The notes: a model not told the origin generated them from the letters alone. A stretch of 64,000 nucleotides of DNA from Methanolobus sp. (GCA_029762595.1 JARVGJ010000004.1:8205-72204), one strand, 5' to 3'. Shown: positions 38,994-63,204, counted from the stretch's first letter. Numbers and translations are program-made.

Positions 38994-39010
38994 TGCTACG
39001 AGGTTTAACT

Positions 39011-46013: not shown

Positions 46014-47264
46014 ATGGAAATTGAAGCTAAGTTCATTGTAAAGGACCGTGCCACCTTCGAGAGGTTAATGAGCACAAAGTCTATAGAAGATTTCACTGTT
46101 TCTGAAGCTGTTGATAGTGAATTCATGGATACATATCTTGATACACTGGATATGGCCATATATTCTTCAGGCTTCTCTTTCCGCTGCAGGGAAAAGAAAG
46201 ACAAAGTTGTATATACGTTAAAATCATTGAAAGGAACCGGTTCTCTAATCCATACACGGGAAGAAATAGAATTTTCAATGAAAGAGAAGAGCCCTGTGGA
46301 TAAATGGAACGATTGTCTGCTCAAGGATCGTGTCCTGGAAATTATAGGCCAGGGAAGCCTTTACCCCCTGTTTCTGGTGGAGCACAAAAGAGCGGATCTT
46401 CAGGTATCAGATGAACAAAGGCACATCGCAGAATTGAGTTTTGATGATGTTATCATTATTTGTGACAACAACAGCAAAAGCTATCTTGAGCTGGAGGCGG
46501 AACTTATGGGCGATGGTACTGAATCCCAGCTTCAACGGATAGTTTTATTCTTCAGGGACGAAGCGGGACTTGTTCCAGGCAGCAGTTCAAAATTTGACAA
46601 TGGACTTGAGCTTTTCATTGAAAACATACGAAAAGATGCTATGAGCATTGACTATGGAACAGATTTTAGCAACGAAGGGATCTCATTCTCACCTGTGAAG
46701 GAAATGTTTGAGGAATATGGCATCGAACAGGAACATGCACGCAGGGTTGCCGAGAATGCACTACAGCTATTCGATGCCCTGAAAACGATCCATCTCCTTG
46801 ATGATAAGTTGCACCAGACATTGAGGTTCGCAGCGCTTGTCCATGACATAGGGGTCATGACCGACATAAGCAAGCACCATAAGGTCGGAAGGGATATACT
46901 GCTTAGCTCCTGCCCGGAGGAACTCCCCTGCCCTTTATGCCTTTTCCTGCCATGGACAACCTTCCTGCACAAGAAGAGTATCAACCCCATAAAACTGCAA
47001 AAACTCTCAATGAAAAAAAAATATGCCGGGTTACCTGTGAAAATGCAGGACGATATACTTAAGATGTCAGCTATTTTACGGATCGCAGATGCCCTGGACT
47101 ATAGCAGGATGAACAGCAAGATAACAAATATAGACCTGCTGAAAGAAGACATAGTTATCAAAGTCAAAGGACCGGGAGCGGACATAGACGCTGATAGAGC
47201 GGATACAAAAGCAGACATGTGGCGCCTGCTGTTTGAAAGGGACCTCTACTTCCGGGAAGATTAA
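46014..47264 (+). CDS. CYTH (triphosphate tunnel) domain fused to a Ppx/GppA C-terminal HD-like module
   Basis: N-terminus MEIEAKFIV (ExExK). The C-terminal half, EHARRVAENALQLFDAL...LRFAALVHDIGVMTDISKHHKVGRDILL...ILRIADALDYSR, matches domains III-IV of long exopolyphosphatases. Confidence 0.8.
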   Translation: MEIEAKFIVKDRATFERLMSTKSIEDFTVSEAVDSEFMDTYLDTLDMAIYSSGFSFRCREKKDKVVYTLKSLKGTGSLIHTREEIEFSMKEKSPVDKWNDCLLKDRVLEIIGQGSLYPLFLVEHKRADLQVSDEQRHIAELSFDDVIIICDNNSKSYLELEAELMGDGTESQLQRIVLFFRDEAGLVPGSSSKFDNGLELFIENIRKDAMSIDYGTDFSNEGISFSPVKEMFEEYGIEQEHARRVAENALQLFDALKTIHLLDDKLHQTLRFAALVHDIGVMTDISKHHKVGRDILLSSCPEELPCPLCLFLPWTTFLHKKSINPIKLQKLSMKKKYAGLPVKMQDDILKMSAILRIADALDYSRMNSKITNIDLLKEDIVIKVKGPGADIDADRADTKADMWRLLFERDLYFRED

Positions 47265-48763
47265 CGCACTCCTCTTTCCACAAGTTCCTTCTCTATGCAT
47301 TTGACGACAGTATCCAATATCTTGATCCTTGCATAATATTTATCGTTTGACCCTACAATGGTCCATGGTGCCCATGAAGTACTGGTCTTCTGGAGCATCT
47401 CATCGGCAGCACTCATATAAAGGTCCCATTTCTCCCTGTTGCGCCAGTCATCGGATGTGATCTTCCATTGCTTATGGGGAGTGTCCTCCCTTTGTTTGAA
47501 CCGGTTCAGTTGTTCTTCCTTGTCCATGTGCATCCAGAACTTTATGACAATCGTGCCGTAATTTGTCAATACCTCCTCAAATTCGTTTATTTCCCTGTAG
47601 GCACGCTTCCATTCCTGGATGCTACAAAGACCCTCCACACGTTCTACAAGCACCCTGCCATACCAGCTCCTGTCATATATCCTTATATGACCTGCTTCAG
47701 GGATCTCATTGTAGAATCGCCAGAGATAATGATGTGAAAGCTCTGTTGTTGTGGGCACCCCTACAGGAATTACCTGATACAGCCGGGGATTGAGTTTCTG
47801 AACGAGCCTTCTTATACTACCGCCCTTTCCGGAGGCGTCCCATCCTTCAAATACAATGATCAAAGGTATGCGGTGCTTAAAAAGCTCATATTGAAGTGAT
47901 GACAACTTTTTAAGATATTTCTTCTTCTCTTTTTTGTATTCCTTATGTGTGATACTCTTGTCAAGGTCTGTACTTTGAAGAATGGAAGAATCTATATTAG
48001 GAACGATGCAATCTTCATTGTTGTTGTTTTGTCCTTTAGATACCTCTTTCCCGATATCCTCGATTTTGTTCTCAATTGACTGGACCACTTTTGCGATGAT
48101 CTTTACAGTTGCAAAGTTCAGGTCATCAGATTCCACTATAGTCCACGGAGCGTAACTTCTGTCAGTCCTTTCCAGAATGTTTTCGATCACAGGCAGGTAC
48201 ATACCATAATCATTCAGGTATTCCTGCTCCTCTTCTTCCACTATAAAAAGAGGTATTTCCTGTTTCTTCAGCTTTCTGTATCTTTTTTCCTGTTCTTCTT
48301 TGCTTACATGAAGGAAGAATTTCACTATAAGATATCCCTCATCTGCCAATTGCCTTTCAAAATATGTGATTTCATTGAGACATGTGGGCATCTCACTGCC
48401 TGGTTTACACTTTCCGTCATGCTCGATAATGACCCTGCGATACCAGCTTCTGTCAAAAATTGCAATCCTGCCCTTCTTTGGTATCCTCGTCCAGAATCGC
48501 CACAATAATGGTTTTTGTTCCTCCTGGTAACAGGGCTTTCCAGTTGTGTAAAAATCAAACCCCATGGGATTGAGTGTCAGTATGAAACGGTTGATAATAT
48601 CAGTCATTCCTGATGCATGCCATCCTTCAAAGACGATAATGACAGGTATATCCATTTTCCATGCTTTTCTCTGCAACTCCCCAATCCGTATCTTCAGATC
48701 TTCGATTAATTTAACATATTCATCTTTACTGATACTTTTTGAAAGATCCACATTTTCAAGCAT
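47261..48763 (-). CDS. ppk2: Two-domain polyphosphate kinase 2 (PAP-like, polyP:AMP/NMP phosphotransferase type)
   Basis: Two PPK2 repeats. The N-terminal repeat has a degenerate Walker A (VFEGWHASGMTD), and the C-terminal repeat has an intact one (VFEGWDASGKGGSIRRL). Confidence 0.9.
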   Translation of the reverse strand: MLENVDLSKSISKDEYVKLIEDLKIRIGELQRKAWKMDIPVIIVFEGWHASGMTDIINRFILTLNPMGFDFYTTGKPCYQEEQKPLLWRFWTRIPKKGRIAIFDRSWYRRVIIEHDGKCKPGSEMPTCLNEITYFERQLADEGYLIVKFFLHVSKEEQEKRYRKLKKQEIPLFIVEEEEQEYLNDYGMYLPVIENILERTDRSYAPWTIVESDDLNFATVKIIAKVVQSIENKIEDIGKEVSKGQNNNNEDCIVPNIDSSILQSTDLDKSITHKEYKKEKKKYLKKLSSLQYELFKHRIPLIIVFEGWDASGKGGSIRRLVQKLNPRLYQVIPVGVPTTTELSHHYLWRFYNEIPEAGHIRIYDRSWYGRVLVERVEGLCSIQEWKRAYREINEFEEVLTNYGTIVIKFWMHMDKEEQLNRFKQREDTPHKQWKITSDDWRNREKWDLYMSAADEMLQKTSTSWAPWTIVGSNDKYYARIKILDTVVKCIEKELVERGVR

Positions 48764-48812
48764 TGTTATCGATTAAGATACTACAAATTTGTATATATAG
48801 TTATAGAGAAAA

Positions 48813-50108
48813 TCATAGGAAGTGTGCCCTTATATAATAACTCCATATTATCATTGCAATAGTTCCCGATACCACGATTATCATAAATGAAAAGAAGGAT
48901 ATCCTGAATAATTCAGCTGAACCGGTTATTTTGATGTATAAGGGCTTGCTTATAGTGCTCACAAGCCCTGCAAGGATAGCTGTTTCAGCAGCTACGTGCG
49001 GCGAAAGGTTTCCTGTGAATGCAAGTGCTGCTACTGAAGCAGTAACTGCAGAGCTGCTGACTACTCCACCAATGGCTATCGCATAGGCACCACCATCTCC
49101 TGCATATTCGTTTGCGAAGTTGGCAATTATCAGCAGTACAGTAAAAATTGCACCAAACTTGAATGCCGGGCCAAGGGCAAAAGGCGACCCTATATCGATA
49201 CTCTCCTCCAGGTTCAGTGTATTCTTCCATTTCATGGCAACGAATATAATAGCTATCACACCCATAACTATAAAAGGTGGGGCCATCAGTGACGCTGTCT
49301 TGCCACTAGGGTCGGCTATCAATGCTATTATGATATTACTTATTATCATCGATATCACAGAAAGTATTGCGCCTATGAGGATGGAATCCTTTAGTATCGG
49401 TCTTTTTATTGATATATTCGAAAGTGCAGCTATTGTAGCTTCACTGCTAATGAAACCACCAAATAGACCTGAATACGGTATACCACCATGAGAGCCCATT
49501 TTCCTGAGGGACAGGTAACTTACAAAGCTGATGAAGGACACCAATACCACTATCATTATCGATGATTTGAGATTAATGATACCATAGATGGGTTCTTCGG
49601 GAACTATCGGATAAAGTATAAAGGCAACTGCAAGGAATTTAAGGGCGCTGCCGATATCACCTTCAGAAAGATTCTCCGCAAAGGAATGCAAAGGCTTTTT
49701 TTCTATTAGAAGGAAGGTCAGCAGGAGTGCGGTCACAATGGCTATCATGTAAAATCCCAGTGCAACGACAATACCTAATAGGTAGGTACAGAATAATGCT
49801 ACTGAAGTTGTAAGCCCTGATTTGCCTTTGAGGATATTGAGCATGTATATCAAAGATGCCGACGCAAAGATAACAAGCAGGCTCGTAAGAATGATTATCC
49901 ACATGCCAAGGTTATCTGCAAGGAACATGGCAAGAGTACCTGTGATACAGGTGATGGAAAAAGTCCTGACCCCGGCAAATATCTTTTTGTCCGCCCGCCA
50001 GTGCTCCCTTTCCAGACCCACAAGTATCCCTATCATCAGTGAAAGGAATATCTTCCCAAGAATATCCATGGATACGGGGTCGATGCCCCACTGGATCGTC
50101 TGCATCAT
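48813..50108 (-). CDS. MgtC/SapB-family N-terminal domain plus DUF4010-type polytopic membrane protein
   Basis: IGILVGLEREHWRADKKIFAGVRTFSI (MgtC-type GLERE motif) followed by about 10 further TM helices. Confidence 0.7.
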   Translation of the reverse strand: MMQTIQWGIDPVSMDILGKIFLSLMIGILVGLEREHWRADKKIFAGVRTFSITCITGTLAMFLADNLGMWIIILTSLLVIFASASLIYMLNILKGKSGLTTSVALFCTYLLGIVVALGFYMIAIVTALLLTFLLIEKKPLHSFAENLSEGDIGSALKFLAVAFILYPIVPEEPIYGIINLKSSIMIVVLVSFISFVSYLSLRKMGSHGGIPYSGLFGGFISSEATIAALSNISIKRPILKDSILIGAILSVISMIISNIIIALIADPSGKTASLMAPPFIVMGVIAIIFVAMKWKNTLNLEESIDIGSPFALGPAFKFGAIFTVLLIIANFANEYAGDGGAYAIAIGGVVSSSAVTASVAALAFTGNLSPHVAAETAILAGLVSTISKPLYIKITGSAELFRISFFSFMIIVVSGTIAMIIWSYYIRAHFL

Positions 50109-50297
50109 GTGTCACCTTCTTTTATACAATAATTACCATTGTCACATAAAAATAAAGGTGATGATTCTGGCAACAATTTATAATTAAATATATTTCAGCA
50201 CTTTGTAGTATATATCTTTACTGGACATATAAAGGACAAAACATTGAGATAAATCTATATGCTGACTCGAACATAATAATCATAGGGGAGGATTAAA

Positions 50298-50660
50298 ATG
50301 AAGCCTAACATAGAAGCAACAGAATTTGGAAGTATAAATGTAGAGGGGATAACATTTGAAAAGGATATCATAATAAGACTTGATGGAGATATATCAAAAC
50401 GTAAGAAGAAGCTATCCAAGAAGATCTACGGCACATCTCACAAGATATCCGTAGGAGAAGCAAAACATGTCTATCAAAAAGGAGCTGAAAAACTCATCAT
50501 CGGCTCCGGCCATGAAGGAATGGTGAAGCTTTCCAAAAAGGCAGATGCATATTTCAGGAAAAAGGATTGTGATGTGGAACTTCTGCCAACACCTGAAGCA
50601 ATCAAGAAATGGAATGAGATCGAAGGAAAGATAATCGGACTCTTTCACCTGACATGCTGA
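50298..50660 (+). CDS. Mth938-domain (DUF498) protein
   Basis: 120 aa ending in ...GKIIGLFHLTC, with LIIGSGHEGMVKL in the middle; this is the characteristic Mth938 layout. Confidence 0.7.
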   Translation: MKPNIEATEFGSINVEGITFEKDIIIRLDGDISKRKKKLSKKIYGTSHKISVGEAKHVYQKGAEKLIIGSGHEGMVKLSKKADAYFRKKDCDVELLPTPEAIKKWNEIEGKIIGLFHLTC

Positions 50661-50974
50661 GGATTCCATCAGGAAAATACAAGAGGAAGATTAAAAAAAG
50701 TAATAATGAGAAATGAAGAAGGGATATGAAAAAGCTTTCAAAAGAATAATTGCTTTCCTTGAAAATTCCCTGAATAATTAATTCATGCTCATTAAAAAAA
50801 AGCATATTTTTCAGACCATACCTATCTGGTTCAAGGAAGGATTTCTTTTTCTCAGCAATATCCATTGAAGATATGTATTTTGAATGACTTCCTTCTTGAT
50901 CATAATAAAAGTACTTTCAAGTATCTAATACATTGAGCCGATAATCAGGTTAAAATTCAATCGACAAGTAAATT

Positions 50975-52594
50975 TTATGATTTACCGTCCTTATTTTTTT
51001 TAGATGGCAGGGTTTCCCATTCCTTGATTCTTGAGAGAAGCTCTGTTGGCCTTTCAATCTTTATTTTGACCTTTCCTTCATATATATAACCGGTGTTGCC
51101 ATCAATACTGATAGTATCGCCTTCAAACAGCTGTTGATTATCAATAATGCATTTTCCAGCATCAATATCTATATTGATATCTGTGCAGTTGACAATGCAT
51201 ACCTTACCCATCTGACGGGCAACAACTGCTGCATGTGCAGTCCTTGCACCCTTTGCAGTCAGATAGCCGACAGATGCCCTGATTCCTTTAATATCCTCAG
51301 AAGATGGGCTGTTTCTTATGAGTATCACATGTCCGTCTTTTGAGAAAAGTTCTGCCTTAGCATTTGACAGAGCTATCCTTCCACATGTGATACCTGATGA
51401 TGCGGAATCGCCTCTGCCTATTATATTATTATTTGAGACTATTTCCTGAGTAACAATGTTGTTCAGATCTATAGTTTTAAGTCTTTCAAGAGCTGTTTCA
51501 GAATCGATAATTCCTTCGTCAAACATATCTGATGCTATTCTGAGGGCTGCAAATGGTGCTCTTTTGCCATCTCTGCTTTGCAGTATGTAAATTTTTCCCT
51601 GTTGAACTGTAAATTCTATGTCTTGCATATCCCGGTAGTGTGTCTCAAGTAATTTGCTTAGATAGACAAGGTCTTTGTGAATATCCGGCAAAACCTCGAT
51701 CAAATTCATTCTCTTTGTACCTGCCCGGTATCCTGAAACGAGGTCTTCTCCCTGGACACAGAACTTAAAATCTATAACACAGCTATTTTCTCCCGACCAC
51801 GGATTACGTGTGAAAAGGATACCTGACCCGGAATTCATATCGCTGTTACCAAATACCATAGTCTGTATTGTCACTGCTGTTCCCCGGGCCTTTTCATGAA
51901 ATTCCATCCTGCGGAATTCCTGTGCTTTAGGACTCATCCAGGAATCAAGCACTCCAATTACAGCCAGTTCGAGCTGTTCATAAACATTATCAGGAAATCT
52001 TTTTCCACTAATATCCAGGAATAAATCTTCATAATTCCTTATAAGTTCTTTTATGGAAAAAGAGTCAAGCTCACTTTCTTCGAAGATTCCTTCTTTCAAC
52101 TTTATGTCCTCAAGAAAAGAAAAATAATCATCAATATTATGAGAAAAAACAGTCTTTGCAAAACTTTCAAATAGCCTCCTGTAACAATCCCATGCAAACC
52201 GTGGGTTACCTGTCTGGAATATCAGACCTTTTAGAGTGTCCTGGTTCAGTCCAACATTAAGCACTGTTTCCATAGCACCCGGCATTGAGATTGCCGAACC
52301 GGATCTCACGGAAACAAGCAATGGTTTACGTTCGTTTCCAAAGATGTTTCCTGTTGCCTTTTCAAGAAAAGAGATACCGTTCTTTAGCAAATCAGGAACA
52401 TACGGAGGCATTTCCCTGGAGTTCCTGAAATAATCTACACATATAGAAATATTCAAAACAAAACCAGGAGGGACCGGTATACCCAAAGATGCCATCTCAG
52501 CAAGGTTAGATGCTTTCCTGCCAAATTCTTCTACTGGTGCATCTGTCCTGTATATGTGACCAAACGTGATCATTCTGCCAGTATCATCCGACAT
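50975..52594 (-). CDS. Truncated PPDK/PEP synthase-like dikinase: ATP-grasp nucleotide domain plus phosphohistidine swivel domain, no acceptor (TIM-barrel) domain
   Basis: GRKASNLAEMASLGIPVPPGF and VSVRSGSAISMPGAMETVLNVG (PPDK_N). Swivel motif GYLTAKGARTAHAAVVARQMGKVCIV with the catalytic His. The protein ends about 70 aa later. Start is taken at ATG 52594 (TAATG overlap with the upstream stop); the track uses GTG 52609. Confidence 0.8.
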   Translation of the reverse strand: MSDDTGRMITFGHIYRTDAPVEEFGRKASNLAEMASLGIPVPPGFVLNISICVDYFRNSREMPPYVPDLLKNGISFLEKATGNIFGNERKPLLVSVRSGSAISMPGAMETVLNVGLNQDTLKGLIFQTGNPRFAWDCYRRLFESFAKTVFSHNIDDYFSFLEDIKLKEGIFEESELDSFSIKELIRNYEDLFLDISGKRFPDNVYEQLELAVIGVLDSWMSPKAQEFRRMEFHEKARGTAVTIQTMVFGNSDMNSGSGILFTRNPWSGENSCVIDFKFCVQGEDLVSGYRAGTKRMNLIEVLPDIHKDLVYLSKLLETHYRDMQDIEFTVQQGKIYILQSRDGKRAPFAALRIASDMFDEGIIDSETALERLKTIDLNNIVTQEIVSNNNIIGRGDSASSGITCGRIALSNAKAELFSKDGHVILIRNSPSSEDIKGIRASVGYLTAKGARTAHAAVVARQMGKVCIVNCTDINIDIDAGKCIIDNQQLFEGDTISIDGNTGYIYEGKVKIKIERPTELLSRIKEWETLPSKKNKDGKS

Positions 52595-54531
52595 TATCTT
52601 GTACCCCACATATTGAGACTTTCAAAAACATTGTCCCTTATCGTAAAAGAGGCTTTCATTAATGAGTTTGTGGCCTCTTCCAGATTTGCAGCTATCTCTG
52701 TGGCAACATGGAACTCCCTGTAGTCTGCACTCTCTTTCAGAATTGTGATGTGTGCTTTTCGCAAAGCATCATCACACTTTTCTTCCATATCGAATATCAG
52801 ATTTACTGATTTCAGGAATAACTGCATTTCATCCTGAGTAAAACCATGGGTCACATACTGTGATGCATACAGAGCTTTCAGGAACTCCTGACTTCCCTTT
52901 AATGATAATTCAGCTATTGAGCTCAGGCACCTGAAAATATTCGGGGATTTTATAGTATCACATGCAACAGTTGTCATGAAAGCAGCTTCCTCAAAGTAGT
53001 CTACAACATCATCTGCAATCATTATCAGAGTTGAGAAAAATTCTGCAACCTCTATCCTGCCAGATAGAGATCTGACCCTATTTACAACATCATCGGCTTG
53101 TTTTTCCCATTTTTTAGCTCTTAATGCATTTCTTTTGACAAGGCCTTCATCTACTCCGTGCCTTATGTTCAAAAGAGTATCATTGACCGTGATTGCCATC
53201 TCCACCATTAAGGATGCGTGTTCAGAGCAGAGGTCCATAAGATCCTCATGTGCAGAATGGAAATAACGGAGAAGTTCGGCTTTTATCTCATCCTTTATGA
53301 ACAACTGACTCTGTTTTTCCAACAGGCCGGTAGCAGATCTGTCCAGGACAAATGTGAAAAAATCTATTGTCTTTTCACTTCCAATTATCTGGTACAATGG
53401 TTCACCATATCTCATTGGGACTCGGGATGCAACTTCCAATGAATCAAAAACAAGCTGTTTTCCACCAAGGACCAGAAAACCCCTGTGGCCTTTTTCATGG
53501 TCTGCAGCCCACTTGAGTAACTGGATACAATATCTGTTCCTCATGAAATTACGTAATTGCTTGCGTGCCCTGTTCCAGTCAATAAGAAAAACAATCCTTG
53601 ACCCAAGATATTCAAGGAAAAAACTCAATTTATCCGGGTCCTGAGCAGAATATTTTCCTGAGGAAAGATGATAAATATTATCCTCAAATCTGCTAACCCC
53701 ACTTTTAGATAAAGTATCATTCCATTCCACTCCGTATGAATCAAAGAGACTCTGGAAAAAAAGCACCCGGGACAAGTGGACATCAGTATAGGTTATTGAG
53801 ACCTCTTTTTCCTGAACATTTATTACCAGAACATGAGCATCTGTTTCTCCTATATCGTTTTGTATCATTAGTTTCTGACCACTGCGTGTAGCCGTTGTTC
53901 CCAGGCCAGGGTGACCGAACTTTAGAGGTGCAGTTCTATTCAATCCTTTCATGAAAGCTTTTACAAGGAACTTATCATTTTCAGTTAGCATGTATGTGTT
54001 TGCACCATCTATTATCTCTCCGGATATCGTTTCCTGTAATTTATTAAGGGATTTGTGTATGTCCATTACAAGTATATGCAGACTATCTCCGTGTTCCCGG
54101 TCTCCAGACGTAATCCTTGCTATGTCATCTTCCGAAATAACGTTTGAAACGGGTTCAGGAAGGAACGTGGAGAGTTCATAGAATCTATTGGTAAAAACCT
54201 CTTCTTCACCTTCACCTGAAATGGCAAAAGGAAGGATTATTTCTTCGATACAATTGCAAATTGAACCGATTATCCTACCTGATTGAGGAATCATAAAAGT
54301 ACCATTATGAAGTTTAGTAGAAGATGAAACAATATTATCCAGTTCAGCATCTTTTTCTCCGGTTGTGATCCTTTCGATACTCAGGTCAGGAAACTCCAGA
54401 TACGGATGCTCTGCTCTTGCCTTTGCGGTTTGAAGTAAGGTAAAGTAATATTTGACCCTGTCATTCGCAAGTAATGCAGCGTTGACGTGACTTGGCAGAA
54501 GCAGCTCATCTTCACCAAGCTCTTGTATCAT
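52594..54531 (-). CDS. Large hypothetical protein with a C-terminal DUF47/PhoU-like helical module
   Basis: 645 aa. The C-terminal third (ALRAKKWEKQADDVVNRVRSLSG...IADDVVDYFEEAAF...MEEKCDDALRKAH...EEATNSLMKA) follows the repeated E-x-x-x-D helical pattern of DUF47/PhoU. The N-terminal 400 aa were not recognised. Confidence 0.7.
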   Translation of the reverse strand: MIQELGEDELLLPSHVNAALLANDRVKYYFTLLQTAKARAEHPYLEFPDLSIERITTGEKDAELDNIVSSSTKLHNGTFMIPQSGRIIGSICNCIEEIILPFAISGEGEEEVFTNRFYELSTFLPEPVSNVISEDDIARITSGDREHGDSLHILVMDIHKSLNKLQETISGEIIDGANTYMLTENDKFLVKAFMKGLNRTAPLKFGHPGLGTTATRSGQKLMIQNDIGETDAHVLVINVQEKEVSITYTDVHLSRVLFFQSLFDSYGVEWNDTLSKSGVSRFEDNIYHLSSGKYSAQDPDKLSFFLEYLGSRIVFLIDWNRARKQLRNFMRNRYCIQLLKWAADHEKGHRGFLVLGGKQLVFDSLEVASRVPMRYGEPLYQIIGSEKTIDFFTFVLDRSATGLLEKQSQLFIKDEIKAELLRYFHSAHEDLMDLCSEHASLMVEMAITVNDTLLNIRHGVDEGLVKRNALRAKKWEKQADDVVNRVRSLSGRIEVAEFFSTLIMIADDVVDYFEEAAFMTTVACDTIKSPNIFRCLSSIAELSLKGSQEFLKALYASQYVTHGFTQDEMQLFLKSVNLIFDMEEKCDDALRKAHITILKESADYREFHVATEIAANLEEATNSLMKASFTIRDNVFESLNMWGTR

Positions 54532-54970
54532 TGATTTCTTGTTTATCGTTCTTGCTCCCCCATGCTTAAAGCACCCATTTCTAAAAATCCGTTAATTGAT
54601 GCAACTAAGCGATGTAATGAATTGTAAAAAACCGATCCTTGTTTGACATATAGGCTCTTTTACTGCCATTCGGATCTAAAATCGTTTCTAGAAAAGAACC
54701 TTCCCTGTTCATAAGACAATTTTGCCCCGAACTATAATTGATGTCCCCATTTAGACTTATATCTTAATAGAATATAGCTTTTGTCTATATAGAAAAGTAC
54801 CAGGATTCTCACTCATACGTAAATAAATCGGCCTACTTCGCATATCTGAAACCTATTGTATCGTGGTTTCAAAACACATGGTTTGTGAAAGATTAAAGAT
54901 ATTTATGCAAAAATATTTGACTATATACTTTTATACTTGCTTCACCCATTATTAATGAGAGGACTGGAAT

Positions 54971-55387: not shown

Positions 55388-57355
55388 GTGCCATCAGATA
55401 TTTTTTTGAGGAAATACTCGTTAATAGCATCTCTTAGCTTCCTTTTAGGCCTGGTATCATGCATGACAGGACTGCTGTTTGCCATGGTCAGCAGGCTCAG
55501 CCGCAGTTCTGATCCGGAGGTGATACTTGTTGTCTGCTCACTCCTTGGAGCCGGGATATTACTGATACTTGCCGGAATAAATATTGCAGGTATCCGCAGA
55601 AAACTTTCCGGGAACTATTCATTCATAGCAGCTCTGGTACTATCGGCCCTAGGACTAACTGTATTTACATTCTCCTTCCCAGGGAACTGGTTCTATCCAA
55701 GGGTATCATATGTGATAGTTTCATATTCATTGGGCATTTTCCTGCTATTGATAAATATATTTGTCAATTATTTCCTGTATACATCCAAAACCTCTTCGGG
55801 AAGGACAATTGATCCACATGAAAGTTTCACATGTACAGGTGCCAGCGACTCCACAAATGTGCCCGGGCAACATAACGATTGTTCAGTGCTTGCAACGTTT
55901 GCAGGCATATTGGTGACAAATATAACATCAATAGCATCAGCTTCATATGAACCATATTTTGTGGACAATGACAGTGATGAAAATGATATGTTTGTTGTTA
56001 TGGAAAATGAACCTGCACAAAGCAGGTTGCAGTCAGGAAATATGACCGATAATGGGAAGATCAAGGATCAGAATGATAAAATCGACGAAGGTATGGAAGA
56101 AAACATGGAAAACAGTACGGATAAAAACATAGACGAAACAGCAAATGAAAAAGAGGCTAGCAATGATGGGTACACCGAACCCACGGCTCTGGAGACCACA
56201 CAGTTTCCGGAAGTAGTGGACGTTGCGGTAACAGAAATAGACACACATTATGAAGAAAATGTCACTGAAGAGTGTGGTCTGTCACCGGAGTTAAAGGAAT
56301 ATGAAGACCTGACTACCTCTAAAACCGCAATACCTGTACCGTTCTCTGAGTTCAGAACAATGAAAAAGACCGATATCAGAGCAGACGATACAATGCGTGC
56401 TGCTGCACGTAAGATACTTATGTTCCATTTCGGGGCAATGATCGAGCATGAAAGGGGTACCAAAGTTGGCAAGGACATCGAAGAACTCCATGACATGCGG
56501 GTTGCTGCAATGCGGATGCGCTCAGCTGTAGAGGTACTGGAAGGCTATCTTGATATGGATGAGATGTCACCATATCGCAAGAACATCAAATCCGTAAGAA
56601 AGGTACTTGGTTCCGTGCGTGACCTTGATGTTTTCCTGGAGAAGATCGACCATTACCTTGCAGACCAGCCACCTGAAAGGAGGGCGCAGATGGACCCTCT
56701 GACAGATTCCATTTTAATAGAAAAGGCAAAGAACCGTGGTACTATGCTTGTGTACCTTGATGACTCAAAGTACAATAAATTCAAAAAGAACTTTGCTGAC
56801 TACCTCTTACATAAGAAGTCCTGGAAAATGCGGTCCGTTAAAAAGAATGGTGAGCCCGTCCCATACAAGGTAATGGATGTACTGCCAGTGCTTCTGTACA
56901 CGCAGTTTGCAGCTGTAAGAGCTTATGACAATGTGGTATCTGATGAGGCAATCGATGACCCCTCCCTTGAAAAGTATCATCAGTTGAGGATAGATGTTAA
57001 AATTTTGCGTTATACACTTGAATTCTTCCGTGAGGTACTTGGACCGGAATCAAAAGAACTCATAAAATATTTGAAAGCTTTACAGGACAATCTTGGGGAC
57101 ATGCATGATACAGTAGTTGCACTGGAGCTGCTTAAGAAATTTGAAGAACGTGGCAGCTGGGGTGAAAGCAGGAAAGAAGGAAAAAACATGTCCGGTGAAC
57201 TGCAAAAATATCCGGGTGTTGATGCTTATATTGAGTACAGGAAACAGGAACTTGAAAGCCTTCTTGAAACATTCCCTGATGTGTGGTCCAATGTAATTGA
57301 CCCGGATTTCAGCGTCAGTTTCTCAAAGGCCATATCAGGAATTTACACGTCCTGA
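55388..57355 (+). CDS. Membrane-anchored CHAD-domain protein (4 N-terminal TM helices, acidic linker, C-terminal CHAD)
   Basis: Hydrophobic N-terminal 130 aa. The D/E/N-rich linker reads DNDSDENDMF...EGMEENMENSTDKNIDETANEKE. CHAD motifs are LHDMRVAAMRMRSAVEV and YHQLRIDVKILRYTLEFF. GTG start. Confidence 0.85.
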   Translation: MPSDIFLRKYSLIASLSFLLGLVSCMTGLLFAMVSRLSRSSDPEVILVVCSLLGAGILLILAGINIAGIRRKLSGNYSFIAALVLSALGLTVFTFSFPGNWFYPRVSYVIVSYSLGIFLLLINIFVNYFLYTSKTSSGRTIDPHESFTCTGASDSTNVPGQHNDCSVLATFAGILVTNITSIASASYEPYFVDNDSDENDMFVVMENEPAQSRLQSGNMTDNGKIKDQNDKIDEGMEENMENSTDKNIDETANEKEASNDGYTEPTALETTQFPEVVDVAVTEIDTHYEENVTEECGLSPELKEYEDLTTSKTAIPVPFSEFRTMKKTDIRADDTMRAAARKILMFHFGAMIEHERGTKVGKDIEELHDMRVAAMRMRSAVEVLEGYLDMDEMSPYRKNIKSVRKVLGSVRDLDVFLEKIDHYLADQPPERRAQMDPLTDSILIEKAKNRGTMLVYLDDSKYNKFKKNFADYLLHKKSWKMRSVKKNGEPVPYKVMDVLPVLLYTQFAAVRAYDNVVSDEAIDDPSLEKYHQLRIDVKILRYTLEFFREVLGPESKELIKYLKALQDNLGDMHDTVVALELLKKFEERGSWGESRKEGKNMSGELQKYPGVDAYIEYRKQELESLLETFPDVWSNVIDPDFSVSFSKAISGIYTS

Positions 57356-57510
57356 AAGAGCCTTTAAAATTGTATCGATCATATGAGACTATGTTGCACT
57401 ATATATGACTATATATGAATCTATATGAAGTGTTATATAATAGGATAGCCTTACTTTTATCAAGATACGATACCATTTTGACGTTTTTTAGACTGAGGAA
57501 CATGAACTTT

Positions 57511-59583
57511 ATGTCAGGTGAAGTAAAAGATTACATTAACAGGGAGATAAGCTGGCTTTCATTCAATGAAAGGGTGCTTCAGGAAGCAAAGGATCCGGAA
57601 GTCCCTTTGCTTGAGCGTCTGAAGTTCCTTGGGATCTTCTCCTCAAACCTCGACGAATTCTTCAGCGTAAGGGTTGGAACACTGCAGCGCATGATAGATG
57701 CAGGAGTGAAGTCCAATGCCATGGTTGGTGTTTCTCCTAAAAGGGTCATGAAACAGGTGCATGATATCGTACTGCAACTACGTGATGATTTCGACAGGGT
57801 ATTTGTTGAACTAACAAAGGAACTGGAACAACATAATATTTTCATAGTAGATGAAACTCAGCTGGATGAAGTCCAGAAGTCCTTTGTTGAAGATTATTTC
57901 CATGAAAAAGTAAGACCACGCCTTATACCGGTAATGCTTAAAGACATTAACCATTTCCCTTACCTTAAGAACCAGGTCATTTATCTGGTAGTGGATGTCA
58001 GGAAAAAATGGGACCCACATGGTTCCAAATTTGCCCTTATAGAAGTTCCTGCAGACGTACTCCCCCGCTTTATCATGCTTCCTGACTCAGGAGACAGGAA
58101 ATGTGTCATAATGCTGGATGATGTTATACGCTTTGGACTTGATGATATATTCTCAACCTTTAAATATGATTCCATAGGTGCATATACTATCAAGCTTACA
58201 AGGGATGCGGAGCTGGAAATAGACGACGATGTAACAAGAAGTTTCTTTGAGAAGGTATCCGAGAGCCTGGAAGAAAGAAAAAAAGGACAACCAGTACGTT
58301 TTGTCTATGACAGGGAAATGCCCTACTACCTTCTTGATTTTACGCTTAAAGGATTGAAGATCCAGAAATTTGAAAACCTGGTCCCTGGTGGTAAATATCA
58401 TAATGCAAAAGATTTCATGGGCTTTCCACAGATATGGCCTGATGCATTCTATTATCAAAAAAAGGATCCTTTGCCCCATAAAGACCTGATCCGTCATAAG
58501 AGCATATTAGCTGCAATAAGGGAAAGGGACATCCTCCTCCATTATCCATACCAGTCGTTTGATTATTTCATAGACCTTTTAAGGGAGGCTGCAATTGACC
58601 CATATGTTTCAAGCATAAAAATCACCCTTTACAGAGTCGCCCGCAATTCCAATGTCATAAACGCGCTGATCAATGCAATAAAGAACGGGAAAAAGGTCAC
58701 GGTTGTTATTGAGCTTCAAGCAAGGTTTGATGAGGAATCCAATATTTACTGGACCCAGAAACTTGAGGAAGAAGGTGCAAGGATCATCGACGGTGTACCG
58801 GGTTTGAAAGTACACTCTAAATTGTGCCATATCACAAGGATAGAGGAAAATGTCCCTGTTCATTATTCTTGTATCGGGACCGGCAATTTCAACGAATCCA
58901 CTGCCACATTATATTGTGATCACATGTTAATGACAACTGATATGCAAATAACCTATGAGGTAGAGAAGGTTTTTGATTTCTTTGAGCATAATTATAAAAC
59001 CTATGGATATGAGCATCTTCTTGTTGCCCCCCTTTATATGAGAAATGCGTTTGAAGGATTCATCGACAATGAGATCGCAAATGCAAAGGCAGGATATCCT
59101 GCCTACATTCATGCAAAGATGAACAGTCTTGTGGACAGGGATATGATCAATAAGCTTTATGAGGCAAGTAAAGCAGGTGTGAGTATCAAATTGGTCATCA
59201 GAGGGATCTGTTCACTTGTTCCCGGTGTTGCAGGTCAGAGTGAAAAAATAGAGGTCATCAGTATAGTTGACAAATATCTTGAACATTCACGTATTTTTAT
59301 ATTCTGCAACAATGGTGAGGAAAGATATTTCATCTCATCGGCCGACTGGATGGTCAGGAACCTTGACAGGCGTGTGGAAGTTGCAGTGCCTTTGTATGAT
59401 CCTGCTCTTCAAAAGGAGCTGAAAGAATACATGAACTTGCAGTTCACAGATAATACCAAGGCCCGGATAATCAATGAGCTCCAGGATAACAGATACAGGA
59501 AAAGTGGAGACATCCCTTGTCGTGCCCAGGAAGACATATATCATTTCCTTGAACGTAAATTGAAAAACGAGGACACACAATGA
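57511..59583 (+). CDS. ppk: Polyphosphate kinase 1
   Basis: YINREISWLSFNERVLQEA N-terminal signature and two PLD-like HKD regions (VHSKLCHI...). The ATG at 57511 is about 10 nt after TGAGGAA; the track ORF begins at 57415. Confidence 0.9.
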   Translation: MSGEVKDYINREISWLSFNERVLQEAKDPEVPLLERLKFLGIFSSNLDEFFSVRVGTLQRMIDAGVKSNAMVGVSPKRVMKQVHDIVLQLRDDFDRVFVELTKELEQHNIFIVDETQLDEVQKSFVEDYFHEKVRPRLIPVMLKDINHFPYLKNQVIYLVVDVRKKWDPHGSKFALIEVPADVLPRFIMLPDSGDRKCVIMLDDVIRFGLDDIFSTFKYDSIGAYTIKLTRDAELEIDDDVTRSFFEKVSESLEERKKGQPVRFVYDREMPYYLLDFTLKGLKIQKFENLVPGGKYHNAKDFMGFPQIWPDAFYYQKKDPLPHKDLIRHKSILAAIRERDILLHYPYQSFDYFIDLLREAAIDPYVSSIKITLYRVARNSNVINALINAIKNGKKVTVVIELQARFDEESNIYWTQKLEEEGARIIDGVPGLKVHSKLCHITRIEENVPVHYSCIGTGNFNESTATLYCDHMLMTTDMQITYEVEKVFDFFEHNYKTYGYEHLLVAPLYMRNAFEGFIDNEIANAKAGYPAYIHAKMNSLVDRDMINKLYEASKAGVSIKLVIRGICSLVPGVAGQSEKIEVISIVDKYLEHSRIFIFCNNGEERYFISSADWMVRNLDRRVEVAVPLYDPALQKELKEYMNLQFTDNTKARIINELQDNRYRKSGDIPCRAQEDIYHFLERKLKNEDTQ

Positions 59584-60470
59584 GATTTGCTGCCATAGAT
59601 GTTGGCTCCAATGCGGTTCGTCTGCTCCTTTCAAAGGTTGATTCTGAAGGAATAGAGCCCATATATGAAAAGATATCTTTTATACGCATGCCTATCCGCC
59701 TTGGTGAGGATGCATTCGTCCATAATAATATCTCGCAGGAAAAGATATCCCGTCTTGTGGATACAATGACAGGGTTCAGATACCTTATGGATGCCTATGA
59801 ACCCATAGACTACATGGCATGTGCAACTTCAGCTATGAGGGAAGCTGATAACAGAGATATGATCATTTCCATGGTAAAGGAAAGAAGCGGCATTGATCTT
59901 AAAGTTATCAGCGGCAGGAAAGAAGCAAAAATTATCTATTCAAACCGTATAGAAAAGTTACTGGGAAGCAGTGACTCCATCTATCTTCATATTGATGTTG
60001 GTGGTGGCAGTACGGAACTTATACTTTTTAAGGGAAAGGAAGTTTTTGCGTACAGATCTTTCAATATCGGAACTATCCGTATGCTGGAAGGCATTGTGAC
60101 AAAAGATGACTGGAAAGAGATGAAAGAATGGGTAAAAAGTGTGACCCGTAAGCACATGCCGGATTATGCTATTGGAAGTGGCGGAAATATAAGCAAACTC
60201 TTTAGGATGGCCGGTAAAAAAGATGGTACACTCATAAATGACACCGATATCAAAGACCTGAATACATATCTTAAGGGCTTCACATTAGAACAGCGCATAG
60301 CAAAGCTGGGCCTGCGTCCTGACAGGGCAGATGTGATAGTTCCCGCTTCCAGGATATATTACTCTGTTATGAAATGGGGCAATATCAATACTATGCATGT
60401 CCCGCAACTTGGTCTTGCAGATGGGATCATACATGTCCTGTACAACAAACATAAAAAAGATTATATATAA
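59580..60470 (+). CDS. ppx: Exopolyphosphatase, short form (Ppx/GppA N-terminal ASKHA domains I-II only)
   Basis: MRFAAIDVGSNAVRLLL and HIDVGGGSTEL motifs. 296 aa, with an ATGA overlap with ppk. Confidence 0.9.
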   Translation: MRFAAIDVGSNAVRLLLSKVDSEGIEPIYEKISFIRMPIRLGEDAFVHNNISQEKISRLVDTMTGFRYLMDAYEPIDYMACATSAMREADNRDMIISMVKERSGIDLKVISGRKEAKIIYSNRIEKLLGSSDSIYLHIDVGGGSTELILFKGKEVFAYRSFNIGTIRMLEGIVTKDDWKEMKEWVKSVTRKHMPDYAIGSGGNISKLFRMAGKKDGTLINDTDIKDLNTYLKGFTLEQRIAKLGLRPDRADVIVPASRIYYSVMKWGNINTMHVPQLGLADGIIHVLYNKHKKDYI

Positions 60471-60707
60471 ACAATGTTAATGAATGTTGCATTGCTTGTC
60501 CACAGGATAAAATTTGAATTGTACGTTTGTAACATGCTTTTTTTAATTTAATTGTCTTCCAGGTTTGCTAACCTATAGCCATAAATGAGAATCCTATGTT
60601 CATAATATATAAATACTGATTTGCCAGACAACTCTTCATAGAATATATTCCAGTCCACGTTTGCCGGAATTCCCGGCAGACCTGAATAAAAACCAATAGT
60701 TGATCTT

Positions 60708-61736
60708 ATGGATTATCCTGGCAGTAGAAACGGTTGCCTGTATCTTGGAATAGATGCGGGCATGTTCAAAACATCTGTTTGCACCAGTGAAGGAAAGAGA
60801 TTCTCTGAGCGAAGTGTTGTAATTCTCCATGAAAACAGTGCTGACTCTGATGGAAGAATATTATCCGGAACACAAGCCCTGGAAGCGACAGATGGGAACG
60901 TAAAAGAAGCCCTGAAAAACGGGTTAAAAGATGAGGATGATGTTCTTATTTTCAAGGAGTACCTTACAGATTTACTTGAAAAACATGATATTGAAGTTAA
61001 AAACAGAAATATATATGCAATACTTGGCGTTCCATCTACTGCAAACATGGAATACAAAAAAAATCTTCTTTCCCTTGCAATGGAACTGTTCTCCGGTGCA
61101 ATGCTGGTTGATGAGCTTTTTTGTATAGCCTATAAAAAAGATATTCTTGAAACATCAATGATACTGGATCTTGGGTTCAGCAAAACAGACATTGCCATAA
61201 TAAACGGTGGTATCCCACAGGAAAATGATTTTCATTGTCTTTCGTGTTCCGGAAAAGATATTGACAGTGAAATAGTCAAGCTCATAAAAGAAAGATGGTA
61301 CGACTCAATAGTAACAGAAGAGCTTGCAAGGGAATGGAAAGAGGAATACGGACACCTTGTTTCTGCTCCCGGAGCATGTACTGTCAATATTCCCCTTGAA
61401 AGCGGGACTGTAAATGAATCAATAGATGAAGAGATACAGATAGCATGTGAGTTTGTTGTCACAGATATCGTTTCAGGTATTACCCGGCTCCTGTCGGAGG
61501 TAGAAACGGAAATAAGGGAATCATTAAGGAATAATATCCATATCTTTGGCGGCACCAGTCGCCTGCTCAATATTGGCACCTTTATAGAGAATGAGCTAAA
61601 AGAGCTGGGAGGAGCCAGAGTTTCCCTTGATATTGACCCGGTTTTTGGTGTTGCTGAAGGTGCACTGGAGTTATGCAGGAATATGCCGGCGGAATTCTGG
61701 GAACAAATCATTGCTCAAAACAGAATCAGGATCTGA
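60708..61736 (+). CDS. Actin-fold (ASKHA) ATPase resembling MreB/MamK/ParM-type cytomotive proteins
   Basis: Phosphate-1 LYLGIDAGMFKTSV, phosphate-2 MILDLGFSKTDIAII, adenosine motif IHIFGGTSRL, connect-2 DPVFGVAEGAL. 342 aa. Confidence 0.7.
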   Translation: MDYPGSRNGCLYLGIDAGMFKTSVCTSEGKRFSERSVVILHENSADSDGRILSGTQALEATDGNVKEALKNGLKDEDDVLIFKEYLTDLLEKHDIEVKNRNIYAILGVPSTANMEYKKNLLSLAMELFSGAMLVDELFCIAYKKDILETSMILDLGFSKTDIAIINGGIPQENDFHCLSCSGKDIDSEIVKLIKERWYDSIVTEELAREWKEEYGHLVSAPGACTVNIPLESGTVNESIDEEIQIACEFVVTDIVSGITRLLSEVETEIRESLRNNIHIFGGTSRLLNIGTFIENELKELGGARVSLDIDPVFGVAEGALELCRNMPAEFWEQIIAQNRIRI

Positions 61737-61740
61737 TAAT

Positions 61741-63204
61741 ATGAATTCATTGAACTTCTCAGGCGACTATAAAAAAGATGAAAAAACACCTAAGCTCTTT
61801 ACTCCTAATATTTACAGAAAACCTATCACATCAAATGAACATGAAAAGGAAGGAAAAAGAACCGCATCTCATTCTGGCCCACATAACTATGTTCCAGAGA
61901 ATGCTGGGGAACCTTGCGATGATGAAAAGGAGACAATTTACAGGATTCCGGCATCTGATATAGATGAGCTTGTACAGAAAGAGGCATTACTTTCTGAAAT
62001 AAAGAAACGTTATGAATCAGAGATAAGTGAATATGAAGAAAAGCAAAAAGAGATCAGTGAACTGAAAAACAAATTCGCCCAGCAGGAGAAAGAGCTTCGG
62101 GAGAAATGTGCCATCCTCAAGGCTGCAACTGAAAAAACAAAAAAGTCCATACCCAGGGAGCAGACAGAGAAACTTGAAAAAGAGATATCTGCATTTGAAG
62201 AGAGACGCCTTGAATATGAAAAGCGCTTAAAGGAGTTTGAAGCATCCAGAAGCGAATATGAAAAAGAGCTTTCGAATCATAAAATACGTATGGAGGAACT
62301 TGAACAGAAGAAAGCGGCATATGAGAACGATCTTGAACAGCATACAAAGAAGAGATCAGAGCTGGATGAAAAACGCAGATCATTGGAGGAAATGATAAGC
62401 TCCGGTGAACAATTCACCATAGAACTGAATGATATAAGCTATCCGGCAGTTATCGAGGAAATAAAGTCCGGTTACTATGAACAATTGCAGGCCCTGAACC
62501 GAAAGCGAGCAGACATTGAAACCCTAAAGTCTGAATTAGAGGATGAGGAGGAATTCCTTGCACAAAAGCGCTTTTCAATTGAAAAAGCAAAAGAGAATAT
62601 CCATAAGGAACTCCTTGAACTTGGACCAAAGACCGTTGAGCTTGATGCAGCAATTGTCATTTATGAAGAAAGTGTAAAGAACCATCAGGAAAAAGAGCTT
62701 GCTTTTGAGGAAAAGATAAAGGCCTTTGAAAAGAAGAAAATCGAACTCAATGCTGAGGCTGAGAATCTTGAGCTGCAGCATCTTCAGACCTTAAAGTCGC
62801 ATGAAGAAAAAGAAATGGTTTTGCAGCAACGTATGAAAGATCTGGAGCAGAAGAAAGCTGAACTTGAAGGTGAAGAGGAAAATATCCGTTCAAGGCGGGA
62901 AGATAATTCAAGAAAGGAAGAGGATATCAAGCAATCACTTTCAGAAATGGAAGCCAGAAGAAGTGAGCTTGAAAGGATGATCGGGAAGACAAATGAGGAA
63001 ATAGGTGTGCATGTGACCATCCACCGCCAGCATCTTGATATCAAAAAACTTAACAACAAGCTGGAACAACAGCTTATTTATATACAGAGCCTTGAAAGTT
63101 CAGTGGCAGATCTTAAACGCAGCCTCGAAGAAGCAAAGTGTGATGTTAAAAAGAATGAGGTATTCTCACAGATCCTCAAGCAGAATATTGAGCTTATAGG
63201 ATGA
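61741..63204 (+). CDS. 487-aa coiled-coil protein (E/K-rich, SMC/arcadin-like in composition only)
   Basis: The ATG at 61741 lies 4 nt after the actin-like gene stop. After an 80-aa basic, low-complexity N-terminus, the rest is continuous heptad-like E/K/L sequence. The track ORF start (61627) lies inside the upstream gene. Confidence 0.75.
   Translation: MNSLNFSGDYKKDEKTPKLFTPNIYRKPITSNEHEKEGKRTASHSGPHNYVPENAGEPCDDEKETIYRIPASDIDELVQKEALLSEIKKRYESEISEYEEKQKEISELKNKFAQQEKELREKCAILKAATEKTKKSIPREQTEKLEKEISAFEERRLEYEKRLKEFEASRSEYEKELSNHKIRMEELEQKKAAYENDLEQHTKKRSELDEKRRSLEEMISSGEQFTIELNDISYPAVIEEIKSGYYEQLQALNRKRADIETLKSELEDEEEFLAQKRFSIEKAKENIHKELLELGPKTVELDAAIVIYEESVKNHQEKELAFEEKIKAFEKKKIELNAEAENLELQHLQTLKSHEEKEMVLQQRMKDLEQKKAELEGEEENIRSRREDNSRKEEDIKQSLSEMEARRSELERMIGKTNEEIGVHVTIHRQHLDIKKLNNKLEQQLIYIQSLESSVADLKRSLEEAKCDVKKNEVFSQILKQNIELIG

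Follow-up and report, generated by a model that had tools for sequence, protein, structure and literature searches.

A polyphosphate gene supercluster with new accessory candidates in the methanogenic archaeon Methanolobus

This study deals with twelve genes that surround and include the polyphosphate genes ppk1 and ppx of Methanolobus sp. (GCA_029762595.1, JARVGJ010000004.1:8205-72204). They lie at positions 46014-63204 of the 64,000-nucleotide stretch that was analysed as a whole (the window; positions are counted from its first letter). Lists of open reading frames (ORFs), translations, as well as Pfam and NCBIfam scans located all twelve genes and their domains where the original prediction, which was made from the sequence alone, had put them. 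With regard to the host, this prediction had spoken of Methanosarcina-type cells; a genome scan anchored on PPK1 identified Methanolobus (family Methanosarcinaceae) instead, with a best match of 92% identity to Methanolobus sp. WCC5. The block is flanked by housekeeping genes, namely birA, pycA and pycB upstream and pyrF downstream (Pfam/NCBIfam scan), and no further phosphate genes were found in the rest of the window. For comparison, 18 Methanolobus/Methanosarcinaceae loci (L001-L018) were analysed by tblastn and blastn, giving 19 loci including the window.

Four genes on the plus strand make up the predicted ppk1-ppx unit. The first one encodes a ferredoxin with two 4Fe-4S clusters (54971-55312; Pfam), which is extended by a basic tail of 56 residues containing 17 Lys/Arg vs. 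4 Asp/Glu. Across the orthologues, this tail comprises 56-65 residues with the conserved motif KKAKKRLIKSQ.RQLK, and 20-23 Lys/Arg are present in 15 of 16 orthologues (18 in L004). The ferredoxin gene stands at the head of the CHAD-ppk1-ppx unit in every relative, and 75 nt separate it from the CHAD gene (55388-57355). The CHAD protein itself consists of four N-terminal hydrophobic helices, an acidic linker of about 200 residues (44 Asp/Glu vs. 13 Lys/Arg) and the CHAD domain (PF05235, residues 343-582; 175.8 bits vs. a cut-off of 25.6), and this architecture, as judged by Pfam, hydropathy and charge, is kept in 13 orthologues. As the helices are even in number and the N-terminus is basic, a cytoplasmic location of the CHAD domain is to be expected. 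The following gene encodes PPK1 with all four Pfam domains (57415-59583; N, middle, C1 and C2, 127-232 bits) and overlaps with ppx (59580-60470) on the same strand as ATGA, so that the predicted coupling of both genes is borne out by the junction sequence. PPX is a short variant of 296 amino acids (aa) featuring domains I-II only (Ppx-GppA, PF02541, 127 bits; TIGR03706, 207.7 bits, under the cut-off of 307). As a side observation, PPK1 of Methanolobus is extended at its N-terminus by about 30-40 aa (MNLYEVLYNRIALLLSRYDTILTFFRL..., window 57415-57530), a stretch that is conserved in the Methanolobus loci and absent in the bacterial relatives, whose matches begin at query residues 14-42.

Three further genes constitute the left part of the cluster. 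On the plus strand, a protein of 416 aa (46014-47264) combines a CYTH domain (PF01928, 43.5 bits, E 4e-11) with domain III of Ppx-GppA (E 3.6e-14) and an HD domain (Pfam); the CYTH ExExK motif is represented by MEIEAK at residues 1-6, and the HD dyad is seen in the translation. This PPX domain III/HD module is recurrently fused to CYTH or CHAD in methanogens: the architecture found here (CYTH-HD in the following) adjoins PPK2 in Methanomethylovorans (L170) and forms a fusion with CHAD in Methanosarcina (L085). The CYTH-HD gene is convergent with the gene of a PAP-like, two-domain PPK2 (47261-48763, minus strand), the two overlapping by 4 nt. PAP-type PPK2 enzymes use polyphosphate to phosphorylate AMP. 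The two PF03976 stretches of the protein (454 bits) differ in their Walker A motif, which is degenerate in the N-terminal domain (GWHASGMT) and canonical in the C-terminal domain (GWDASGKG), as is characteristic of class II enzymes with two fused domains of which only the C-terminal one has an intact Walker A. The internal duplication can still be seen in the DNA as an 84-nt repeat of 70% identity. A gene encoding a polytopic MgtC/DUF4010 membrane protein with about ten hydrophobic segments (48813-50108, minus strand; Pfam) precedes PPK2 at a distance of 49 nt in the same orientation and probably forms an operon with it.

At the right end of the cluster, ppx is followed by genes for an actin-fold ATPase of 342 aa (60708-61736, plus strand) and a coiled-coil protein of 487 aa (61741-63204, plus strand), which are coupled as predicted, the second ATG being located 4 nt past the actin stop codon. 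The best NCBIfam match of the actin is MamK (NF040964; 205.5 bits, E 1.1e-60, positions 1-331 of 335), with the score staying below the family cut-off of 400; BeeR, salactin and MreB rank behind. A comparison with the PDB gave the same picture, with E values of ~1e-37 for the MamK structures 5LJW, 5JYG and 5LJV, 3e-11 for 8R2N and 1e-4 for MreB. Neither the window nor the 18 related loci contain mam genes; the neighbours of the actin there are ppx and the coiled-coil gene. While a search with the single sequence retrieved only 24 relatives, nearly all of them from Methanolobus, a profile search yielded at least 1,263 MamK-like proteins of 26-31% identity, which are separated from the Methanolobus clade by a clear gap and whose few named sources are Planctomycetota. 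Within the Methanolobus clade, identity is at least 34% (tblastn), compared to at most 32% to any other sequence. The coiled-coil protein features an invariant N-terminal peptide (LFTPNIYRKP), a long coil of variable sequence and a conserved C-terminus of about 70 aa, a layout resembling that of an adaptor; its NCBIfam matches are weak, composition-driven and of the SMC type.

The genomic contexts of five bacterial MamK-like actins (L081:8858-9952, L082:1166-1999, L167:7036-7914, L168:7347-7976 and L169:7112-7951; Planctomycetota in the two named records) were also inspected and contained no polyphosphate genes. Upstream of each of these actins, an unannotated protein (209-364 aa) is encoded, and the C-terminal ~80 residues of these proteins are conserved at 40-55% identity. 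Actin and partner seem to represent an uncharacterised system of two genes that has no relation to magnetosomes or polyphosphate.

Between MgtC and the ferredoxin, the window contains a segment of 4,813 bp (50109-54921) that stands in for 118 bp of the divergent MgtC/ferredoxin promoter region of the closest relative (blastn against L014) and was not found at this site in any of the 18 related loci (tblastn, blastn). It extends from the MgtC start codon on the left to a point directly 5' of the TATA block of the ferredoxin gene on the right; the G+C content of the segment is 0.38-0.40 and no flanking repeats were detected around it. Three genes are encoded here: a DUF498 (Mth938-like) protein of 120 aa (50298-50660, plus strand; Pfam, E 7.5e-12), a dikinase (minus strand) and a protein of 645 aa (52594-54531, minus strand). 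The idea of strain-specific junk or foreign DNA was rejected, as these genes are 72-75% identical to Methanolobus orthologues at other genomic sites, which suggests relocation of a polyphosphate-linked module within the lineage. For instance, the same three-gene unit, comprising the 645-aa gene, the dikinase gene and a convergent DUF498 gene, is found among housekeeping genes in M. psychrotolerans (L172:8001-11981), and in strain ZRKC2 the dikinase pair adjoins psiE, and 1.8 Mb separate it from the ppk1 cluster.

The dikinase ORF extends over 50975-52609; its true start is probably the ATG at 52594, which overlaps the stop codon of the upstream 645-aa gene as TAATG and results in a protein of ~539 aa (50975-52594). 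It comprises the Pfam domains PPDK_N and PEP-utilizers (the mobile domain), with the catalytic swivel His motif TAHAAVVAR intact. The match to TIGR01828 covers model positions 17-522 of 865 only (526 bits vs. a cut-off of 843), and no PEP-utilizers_C match was obtained in Pfam or NCBIfam, meaning that the TIM barrel for phosphoenolpyruvate (PEP)/pyruvate is missing. The description as an acceptor-less dikinase coupled to the 645-aa protein was therefore correct. As an observation from elsewhere in the window, a second dikinase-like gene of 901 aa (24343-27048, minus strand) contains PPDK_N only (residues 311-683), and no swivel or TIM-barrel domain was recognised in it.

The original prediction had further described the 645-aa protein as PhoU/DUF47-like. 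This applies to its last third by predicted fold, while at the sequence level no match was obtained in Pfam or NCBIfam even at E = 10, nor in the PDB. In an AlphaFold model (mean predicted local distance difference test score 82), the last ~210 residues are predicted to form a PhoU/DUF47-type bundle, for which Foldseek retrieved 3L39 as best match (target TM-score 0.85, root-mean-square deviation 2.1), followed by other PhoU structures (0.55-0.81). For the N-terminal ~400 residues, Foldseek gave weak likenesses only, namely to the folds of YbjN and of chaperones of type III secretion, and no confident relative was obtained. The family numbers over 3,140 homologues with a length of about 647 aa, whose identities are 50-75% overall and 50-55% across Methanosarcinales and Methanomicrobiales, and has neither a Pfam/NCBIfam model nor a solved structure; PF01865 was recognised in just 2 of 120 homologues among the matches listed. 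With a mean column identity of 64%, the family alignment contains numerous His, Asp, Thr and Arg positions without variation, and the conserved alpha/beta N-terminal region, which precedes the predicted C-terminal six-helix bundle, is rich in such residues.

Turning to conservation, nine of the twelve genes are syntenic in the 18 loci, namely CYTH-HD, PPK2, MgtC/DUF4010, ferredoxin, 4-TM (four-transmembrane) CHAD, ppk1, ppx, actin and coiled-coil, and the conserved order ends in pyrF to the right of the coiled-coil gene. The expectation that the cluster exceeds a ppk-ppx operon and is syntenic among relatives thus held for these nine genes, whereas DUF498, the dikinase and the 645-aa gene are found at this site only here. 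In the lineage, the genes for making, degrading and binding polyphosphate thus share a conserved block of 12-17 kb with several uncharacterised genes. The ferredoxin-CHAD-ppk1-ppx-actin-coiled-coil series is uninterrupted in every locus spanning it, and the five genes from CHAD onward, including the actin and the coiled-coil gene, are present in 18/18 loci. To the left, conservation is slightly lower: PPK2 is found in 16 loci (the remaining two begin downstream of it), MgtC/DUF4010 in 15 (absent in L002 and L018, with L012 beginning downstream) and a full-length CYTH-HD orthologue in 13. The left end of the cluster is plastic, as pycB is the neighbour in just two other loci and chemotaxis genes are located there in the closest relative, while pyrF is kept at the right end in 17 of 18 loci. 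In some genomes, the CYTH/PPK2 junction represents an insertion hot spot for PAS/GAF histidine kinase or PAS-HTH genes, e.g., a PAS/GAF histidine kinase of 1,313 aa in M. vulcani (L008:219-4160), or PAS and HTH-PAS genes upstream of PPK2 in place of CYTH-HD in strain ZRKC3 (L015:1542-2987). These PAS-type insertions are possible local regulators of the cluster.

The three genes of the 4.8-kb segment are linked to polyphosphate genes beyond Methanolobus. The dikinase gene follows the 645-aa gene in about 80 of 84 loci, i.e., essentially wherever the contig allows, and DUF498 adjoins this pair in L105, L109, L114, L117 and L172. In support of the original prediction, the genes were found in the vicinity of polyphosphate genes in several methanogens as well as in metagenomic loci. 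An uninterrupted series of the 645-aa gene, dikinase, CYTH-PpxIII, two-domain PPK2 and DUF498 is seen in Methanomethylovorans (L170:10001-16802), where a gene with a PhoU domain follows at a distance of 2 kb; the series corresponds to the left half of the window cluster without MgtC, with DUF498 located beyond CYTH-HD and PPK2. The pair abuts a CYTH-PpxIII-CHAD fusion in Methanosarcina sp. Ant1, where PhoU and PstS are nearby, and ppx, an HD protein, a CHAD-metallophosphatase and ppk1 in Methanoculleus, while ppk1-CHAD-ppx is found at a distance of 6 kb in Methanoregula. Its neighbours on bacterial contigs of high G+C content include PPK2 and PhoU. At least one polyphosphate/phosphate gene was present at 14 of 83 non-redundant pair loci (mean flank 7.5 kb), and 24 such genes were counted near the pair, compared to ~1.5-3.7 expected under generous assumptions. 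An unbiased clustering of neighbours of the 645-aa family was polluted by spurious ORFs of high-G+C DNA; the most frequent specific and real neighbours were CHAD, PhoU, PPK2 and PstS-like genes. In methanogens and bacteria, the pair consequently adjoins ppk1, ppx, CHAD, CYTH, PPK2 or PhoU genes far above chance.

Intergenic regions gave further hints regarding the transcriptional organisation of the cluster. The spacer between ppx and the actin gene, which measures 205-325 bp in all loci, contains conserved signals at 60537-60622 on the plus strand (19-locus alignment). An oligo-T run follows ppx at 60538-60544, and a 26-nt block, TGTTCATAATATATAAATACTGATTT, is located at 60597-60622; this block is nearly invariant in 19/19 loci, while the coding DNA is only ~70% identical. 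It is unique in the window, where no match is expected by chance, and is interpreted as the actin operon promoter. Together, the oligo-T run and this invariant block suggest that the actin and coiled-coil genes form a separate and strongly constrained transcription unit. Upstream of the promoter block, a second conserved element, TTGTNCATG, is located ~95 nt before ATGTTCAT (60470-60622 and L001-L018), and the two could represent repeated TGTNCAT half-sites for a regulator. The ferredoxin gene is preceded by a conserved TATA block in the 19-locus alignment, which TGTTCATAATATATAAATACTGATTT does not resemble, and no sequence evidence ties the regulation of the actin pair to that of ppk1. Words common to the promoters of the cluster are AT-rich, TATA-like strings only, each promoter being conserved on its own.

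Hallmarks of a mobile island were looked for as well. Neither a tRNA nor an Rfam element was found, and terminal direct or inverted repeats are lacking around the block and around the 4.8-kb segment. The G+C content of 0.38-0.43, compared to 0.39-0.47 in the rest of the window, indicates no compositional break. The individual components differ in their origin: PPK1 is 73-92% identical among loci of the Methanolobus lineage and 60-63% to proteins of Calditrichota/KSB1 bacteria, but only 36-37% to the Methanoculleus type, and PPX shares 49% identity with a planctomycetal (Planctomycetota) protein vs. 27-30% with the methanomicrobial type. For CHAD and CYTH, identities to the Methanosarcina fusion protein are 44% and 36%, respectively, while bacterial CHAD proteins reach 27-30%. 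The only relatives of the actin outside the Methanolobus clade are bacterial. Since ppk1-ppx is of the bacterial and CHAD/CYTH of the methanogen type, the cluster, as judged from these sequence comparisons, is a mosaic assembled in the Methanolobus lineage and not one acquired unit. The likeness to magnetosome islands that had been proposed gains from the actin, whose closest characterised relative is MamK, and the core is co-inherited in the 18 loci of this one lineage; tRNA genes, repeats or a shift in G+C content were not found, the parts differ in origin and the dikinase module moves independently.

Taking together the gene content, domain identities, synteny, linkage of the dikinase unit to polyphosphate genes and mosaic origin observed here, the polyphosphate supercluster with new accessory candidates is real, and we consider the region to be probably a supercluster for polyphosphate and phosphate homeostasis that consists of several transcription units and represents neither one operon nor a mobile island. 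Apart from PPK1, PPX, PPK2 and CHAD, the biochemical and cell-biological roles assigned in the following are ones that we infer. In the first unit (ferredoxin, 4-TM CHAD, ppk1 and ppx), PPK1 would make polyphosphate from ATP, the CHAD domain would bind the polymer, with the four-helix anchor possibly holding the granule surface at the cytoplasmic membrane, and the short PPX would degrade the chains from their end. The basic-tailed ferredoxin could couple the system to the redox state or dock on the polyanion. In Methanosarcina acetivorans, adaptation to O2 was accompanied by a 2-5-fold increase in polyphosphate (PMC4338226), which offers a rationale for a redox protein in this operon. The divergent second unit would allow AMP to be phosphorylated at the expense of polyphosphate by PPK2, a PAP type assigned by architecture, while the MgtC/DUF4010 protein may handle the balance of Mg2+ and phosphate. 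CYTH-HD, as convergent third unit, is probably a hydrolase of short chains or triphosphate.

The fourth unit, located here in this genome only, is formed by DUF498, the 645-aa PhoU-like protein and the dikinase. In this unit, the dikinase would charge its swivel His from ATP and pass the phosphoryl group on to a site of the partner protein, which could provide in trans the acceptor site that is missing together with the TIM barrel/pyruvate-binding domain. The substrate of the pair is presumably phosphate-related, e.g., polyphosphate, pyrophosphate or the partner protein itself, so that the pair could act as an enzyme on polyphosphate/pyrophosphate or as a phosphorelay regulator. The PhoU-like protein and the dikinase may be a new phosphotransferase handling polyphosphate or pyrophosphate, an option that would also be compatible with the positioning of granules. 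The fifth unit, consisting of the MamK-like actin and the putative coiled-coil adaptor under their own predicted promoter, would be connected to polyphosphate by position only.

Several observations weigh against this interpretation. The synteny of the nine-gene core is documented in one lineage only, in which the unrelated pyrF is equally conserved, and gene order at this phylogenetic depth is consequently not proof of function. Moreover, neither MgtC, which L002 and L018 lack, nor CYTH-HD, which in L006, L008 and L015 has been displaced or is not present, is obligatory. In two genomes, Methanolobus sp. ZRKC2 and M. psychrotolerans, the dikinase pair and the ppk1 cluster occupy separate sites, and 69 of the 83 metagenomic pair loci show no polyphosphate neighbour within the available flank. 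Finally, no convincing promoter motif common to the units was found by 10-mer matching of intergenic regions, 19-locus alignments and a search of the window.

An alternative option, which is attractive and at the same time unlikely in our view, is an integrated organelle island, as derived from the adjacency of the genes in one lineage. Here, CHAD and PPK1 would nucleate granules at the membrane, and the MamK-like filament would position or segregate them by means of the coiled-coil adaptor, in parallel to MamK, MamJ and MamY. Such a scenario fits the ranking of MamK as closest characterised relative of the actin (E 1e-60 in NCBIfam and 1e-37 in the PDB vs. 1e-4 for MreB), although the score is half of the MamK family cut-off. 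Likewise, ppx is succeeded by the actin and coiled-coil genes in all 18 loci, and never with an insertion between them, while other parts of the cluster do contain insertions and one locus (L012) has one between the coiled-coil gene and pyrF; however, this is adjacency in a single lineage, and the pair has its own predicted promoter, preceded by an oligo-T terminator after ppx, with no motif common to the ppk1 operon. The adaptor-like layout of the coiled-coil protein and the membrane-anchored CHAD protein as a plausible scaffold would suit this option, too. Furthermore, the Methanolobus actin clade is isolated, so that its distribution matches that of the cluster. On the other hand, the five bacterial relatives have a different conserved upstream partner and no polyphosphate neighbours, and no actin is found in the polyphosphate clusters of Methanoculleus, Methanoregula, Methanosarcina and Methanomethylovorans. 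The corresponding niche appears to be open, as a review of 2025 lists no known energy-using system for granule positioning (PMC13052382). Stated specifically for Methanolobus, we regard it as distinctly doubtful that granules are tethered to the membrane by 4-TM CHAD and PPK1 and positioned or partitioned by a MamK-like filament with its coiled-coil adaptor. It is very improbable that only ppk1-ppx, CHAD, PPK2 and CYTH-HD are related and all other genes are bystanders by recent common ancestry or chance rearrangement: the conserved pyrF beside the block, the occurrence of the 4.8-kb segment in 1 of 19 genomes and the dispensability of MgtC in two loci speak in favour, but the block stays together while its left flank is rearranged in most genomes, the ferredoxin leads the CHAD-ppk1-ppx unit in all relatives at a short distance from CHAD, and the pair and DUF498 rejoin polyphosphate genes in five independent arrangements from two methanogen orders and bacteria.

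Two other gene groups of the window are mentioned for completeness. At 8523-14075, carbohydrate genes (GH15-like, an unannotated ORF of 404 aa, phosphorylase-like and GT2/mannosylglycerate-synthase-like) represent another storage or solute polymer theme. A second pair involving a coiled-coil gene is located at 38993-40623, where an unannotated ORF of 236 aa overlaps by 4 nt with the gene of a coiled-coil protein (307 aa) that belongs to the archaeal DUF7121 family; it has no evident tie to the polyphosphate cluster.

The supercluster is of interest in a wider context, as polyphosphate granules are universal, their nucleation, anchoring and positioning are largely unknown and archaeal polyphosphate biology has barely been studied (PMC13052382; PMC6864096). 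PPK1, PPK2 and PPX have been recorded in Methanolobus without an analysis of their neighbourhood (PMC6864096), and the review cited above names AlgP as the sole factor for the spacing of polyphosphate granules and asks whether energy-using systems exist (PMC13052382). The locus offers testable candidates side by side, i.e., a CHAD protein with a membrane anchor, a ferredoxin whose tail is polycationic and a MamK-type actin with an adaptor-like partner. If true, the positioning by a filament would be without precedent both as cytoskeleton-driven positioning of polyphosphate granules and, among Archaea, as a system that positions an organelle in this way. Apart from the organelle idea, the dikinase and its 645-aa partner are a large, uncharacterised two-gene module tied to polyphosphate/phosphate genes, for which the acceptor of the phosphohistidine is the target to be identified. 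A full-text literature search retrieved no paper connecting MamK with Methanolobus, and none joining DUF47, a dikinase and polyphosphate.

Among known systems, the ppk-ppx operon of E. coli and the CHAD 'phosins' on granules of Ralstonia are obvious points of reference, and Iyer and Aravind are said to have described gene neighbourhoods of CHAD and TTM in 2002, as did Lorenzo-Orts et al. in 2019 (PMC6537752). Binding of polyphosphate by CHAD is established and has been shown, like the localisation on granules, for other CHAD proteins; CHAD and CYTH genes are known from polyphosphate operons (PMC6537752). The Methanolobus cluster follows this pattern with its overlapping PPK1/PPX genes, a CHAD gene in the unit, and CYTH (TTM) and PPK2 alongside. 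However, its CHAD protein features a four-transmembrane anchor and a long acidic linker, PPX is short, with PPX domain III/HD being fused to CYTH instead, a basic-tailed ferredoxin heads the operon and the cluster as a whole is of mosaic origin.

With the MamK/MamJ/MamY system, the locus has in common an actin of the MamK branch that is encoded beside a coiled-coil gene and close to genes for an intracellular inclusion, with which it may associate, and a membrane-anchored binding protein. Coiled-coil Mad proteins are likewise described for deep-branching magnetotactic bacteria (PMC13052382). In contrast to magnetosome clusters, no mam, mad or magnetite genes are present, the partner shows no relation to MamJ, the host is an archaeon and the actin reaches 205 bits vs. 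the family cut-off of 400. AlgP, a histone-H1-like protein, spaces granules in Pseudomonas aeruginosa and tethers them to the nucleoid (PMC13052382). The two systems share a highly basic segment linked with polyphosphate granules, for which the ferredoxin tail and the CHAD domain would be the candidates here; unlike the ferredoxin, AlgP has no iron-sulfur domain, nothing in the locus resembles its sequence, and the scaffold suggested here would be the membrane or a filament.

As for the dikinase, the combination of an ATP-grasp domain with a phosphohistidine swivel and an intact catalytic His is shared with pyruvate phosphate dikinase, PEP synthase and rifampin phosphotransferase (PMC4844700). 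Unlike these enzymes, it has no fused acceptor domain such as the TIM barrel or the rifampin-binding domain and is coupled to a separate partner of 645 aa instead. The predicted bundle of this partner superposes with PhoU/DUF47 proteins (PhoU_div; 3L39, 4Q25 and 2IIU) at target TM-scores of 0.65-0.85. In contrast to these, however, the bundle is only 9-14% identical in sequence and appended to a conserved domain of ~400 residues, and its partner is a dikinase rather than a Pst or PiT transporter.

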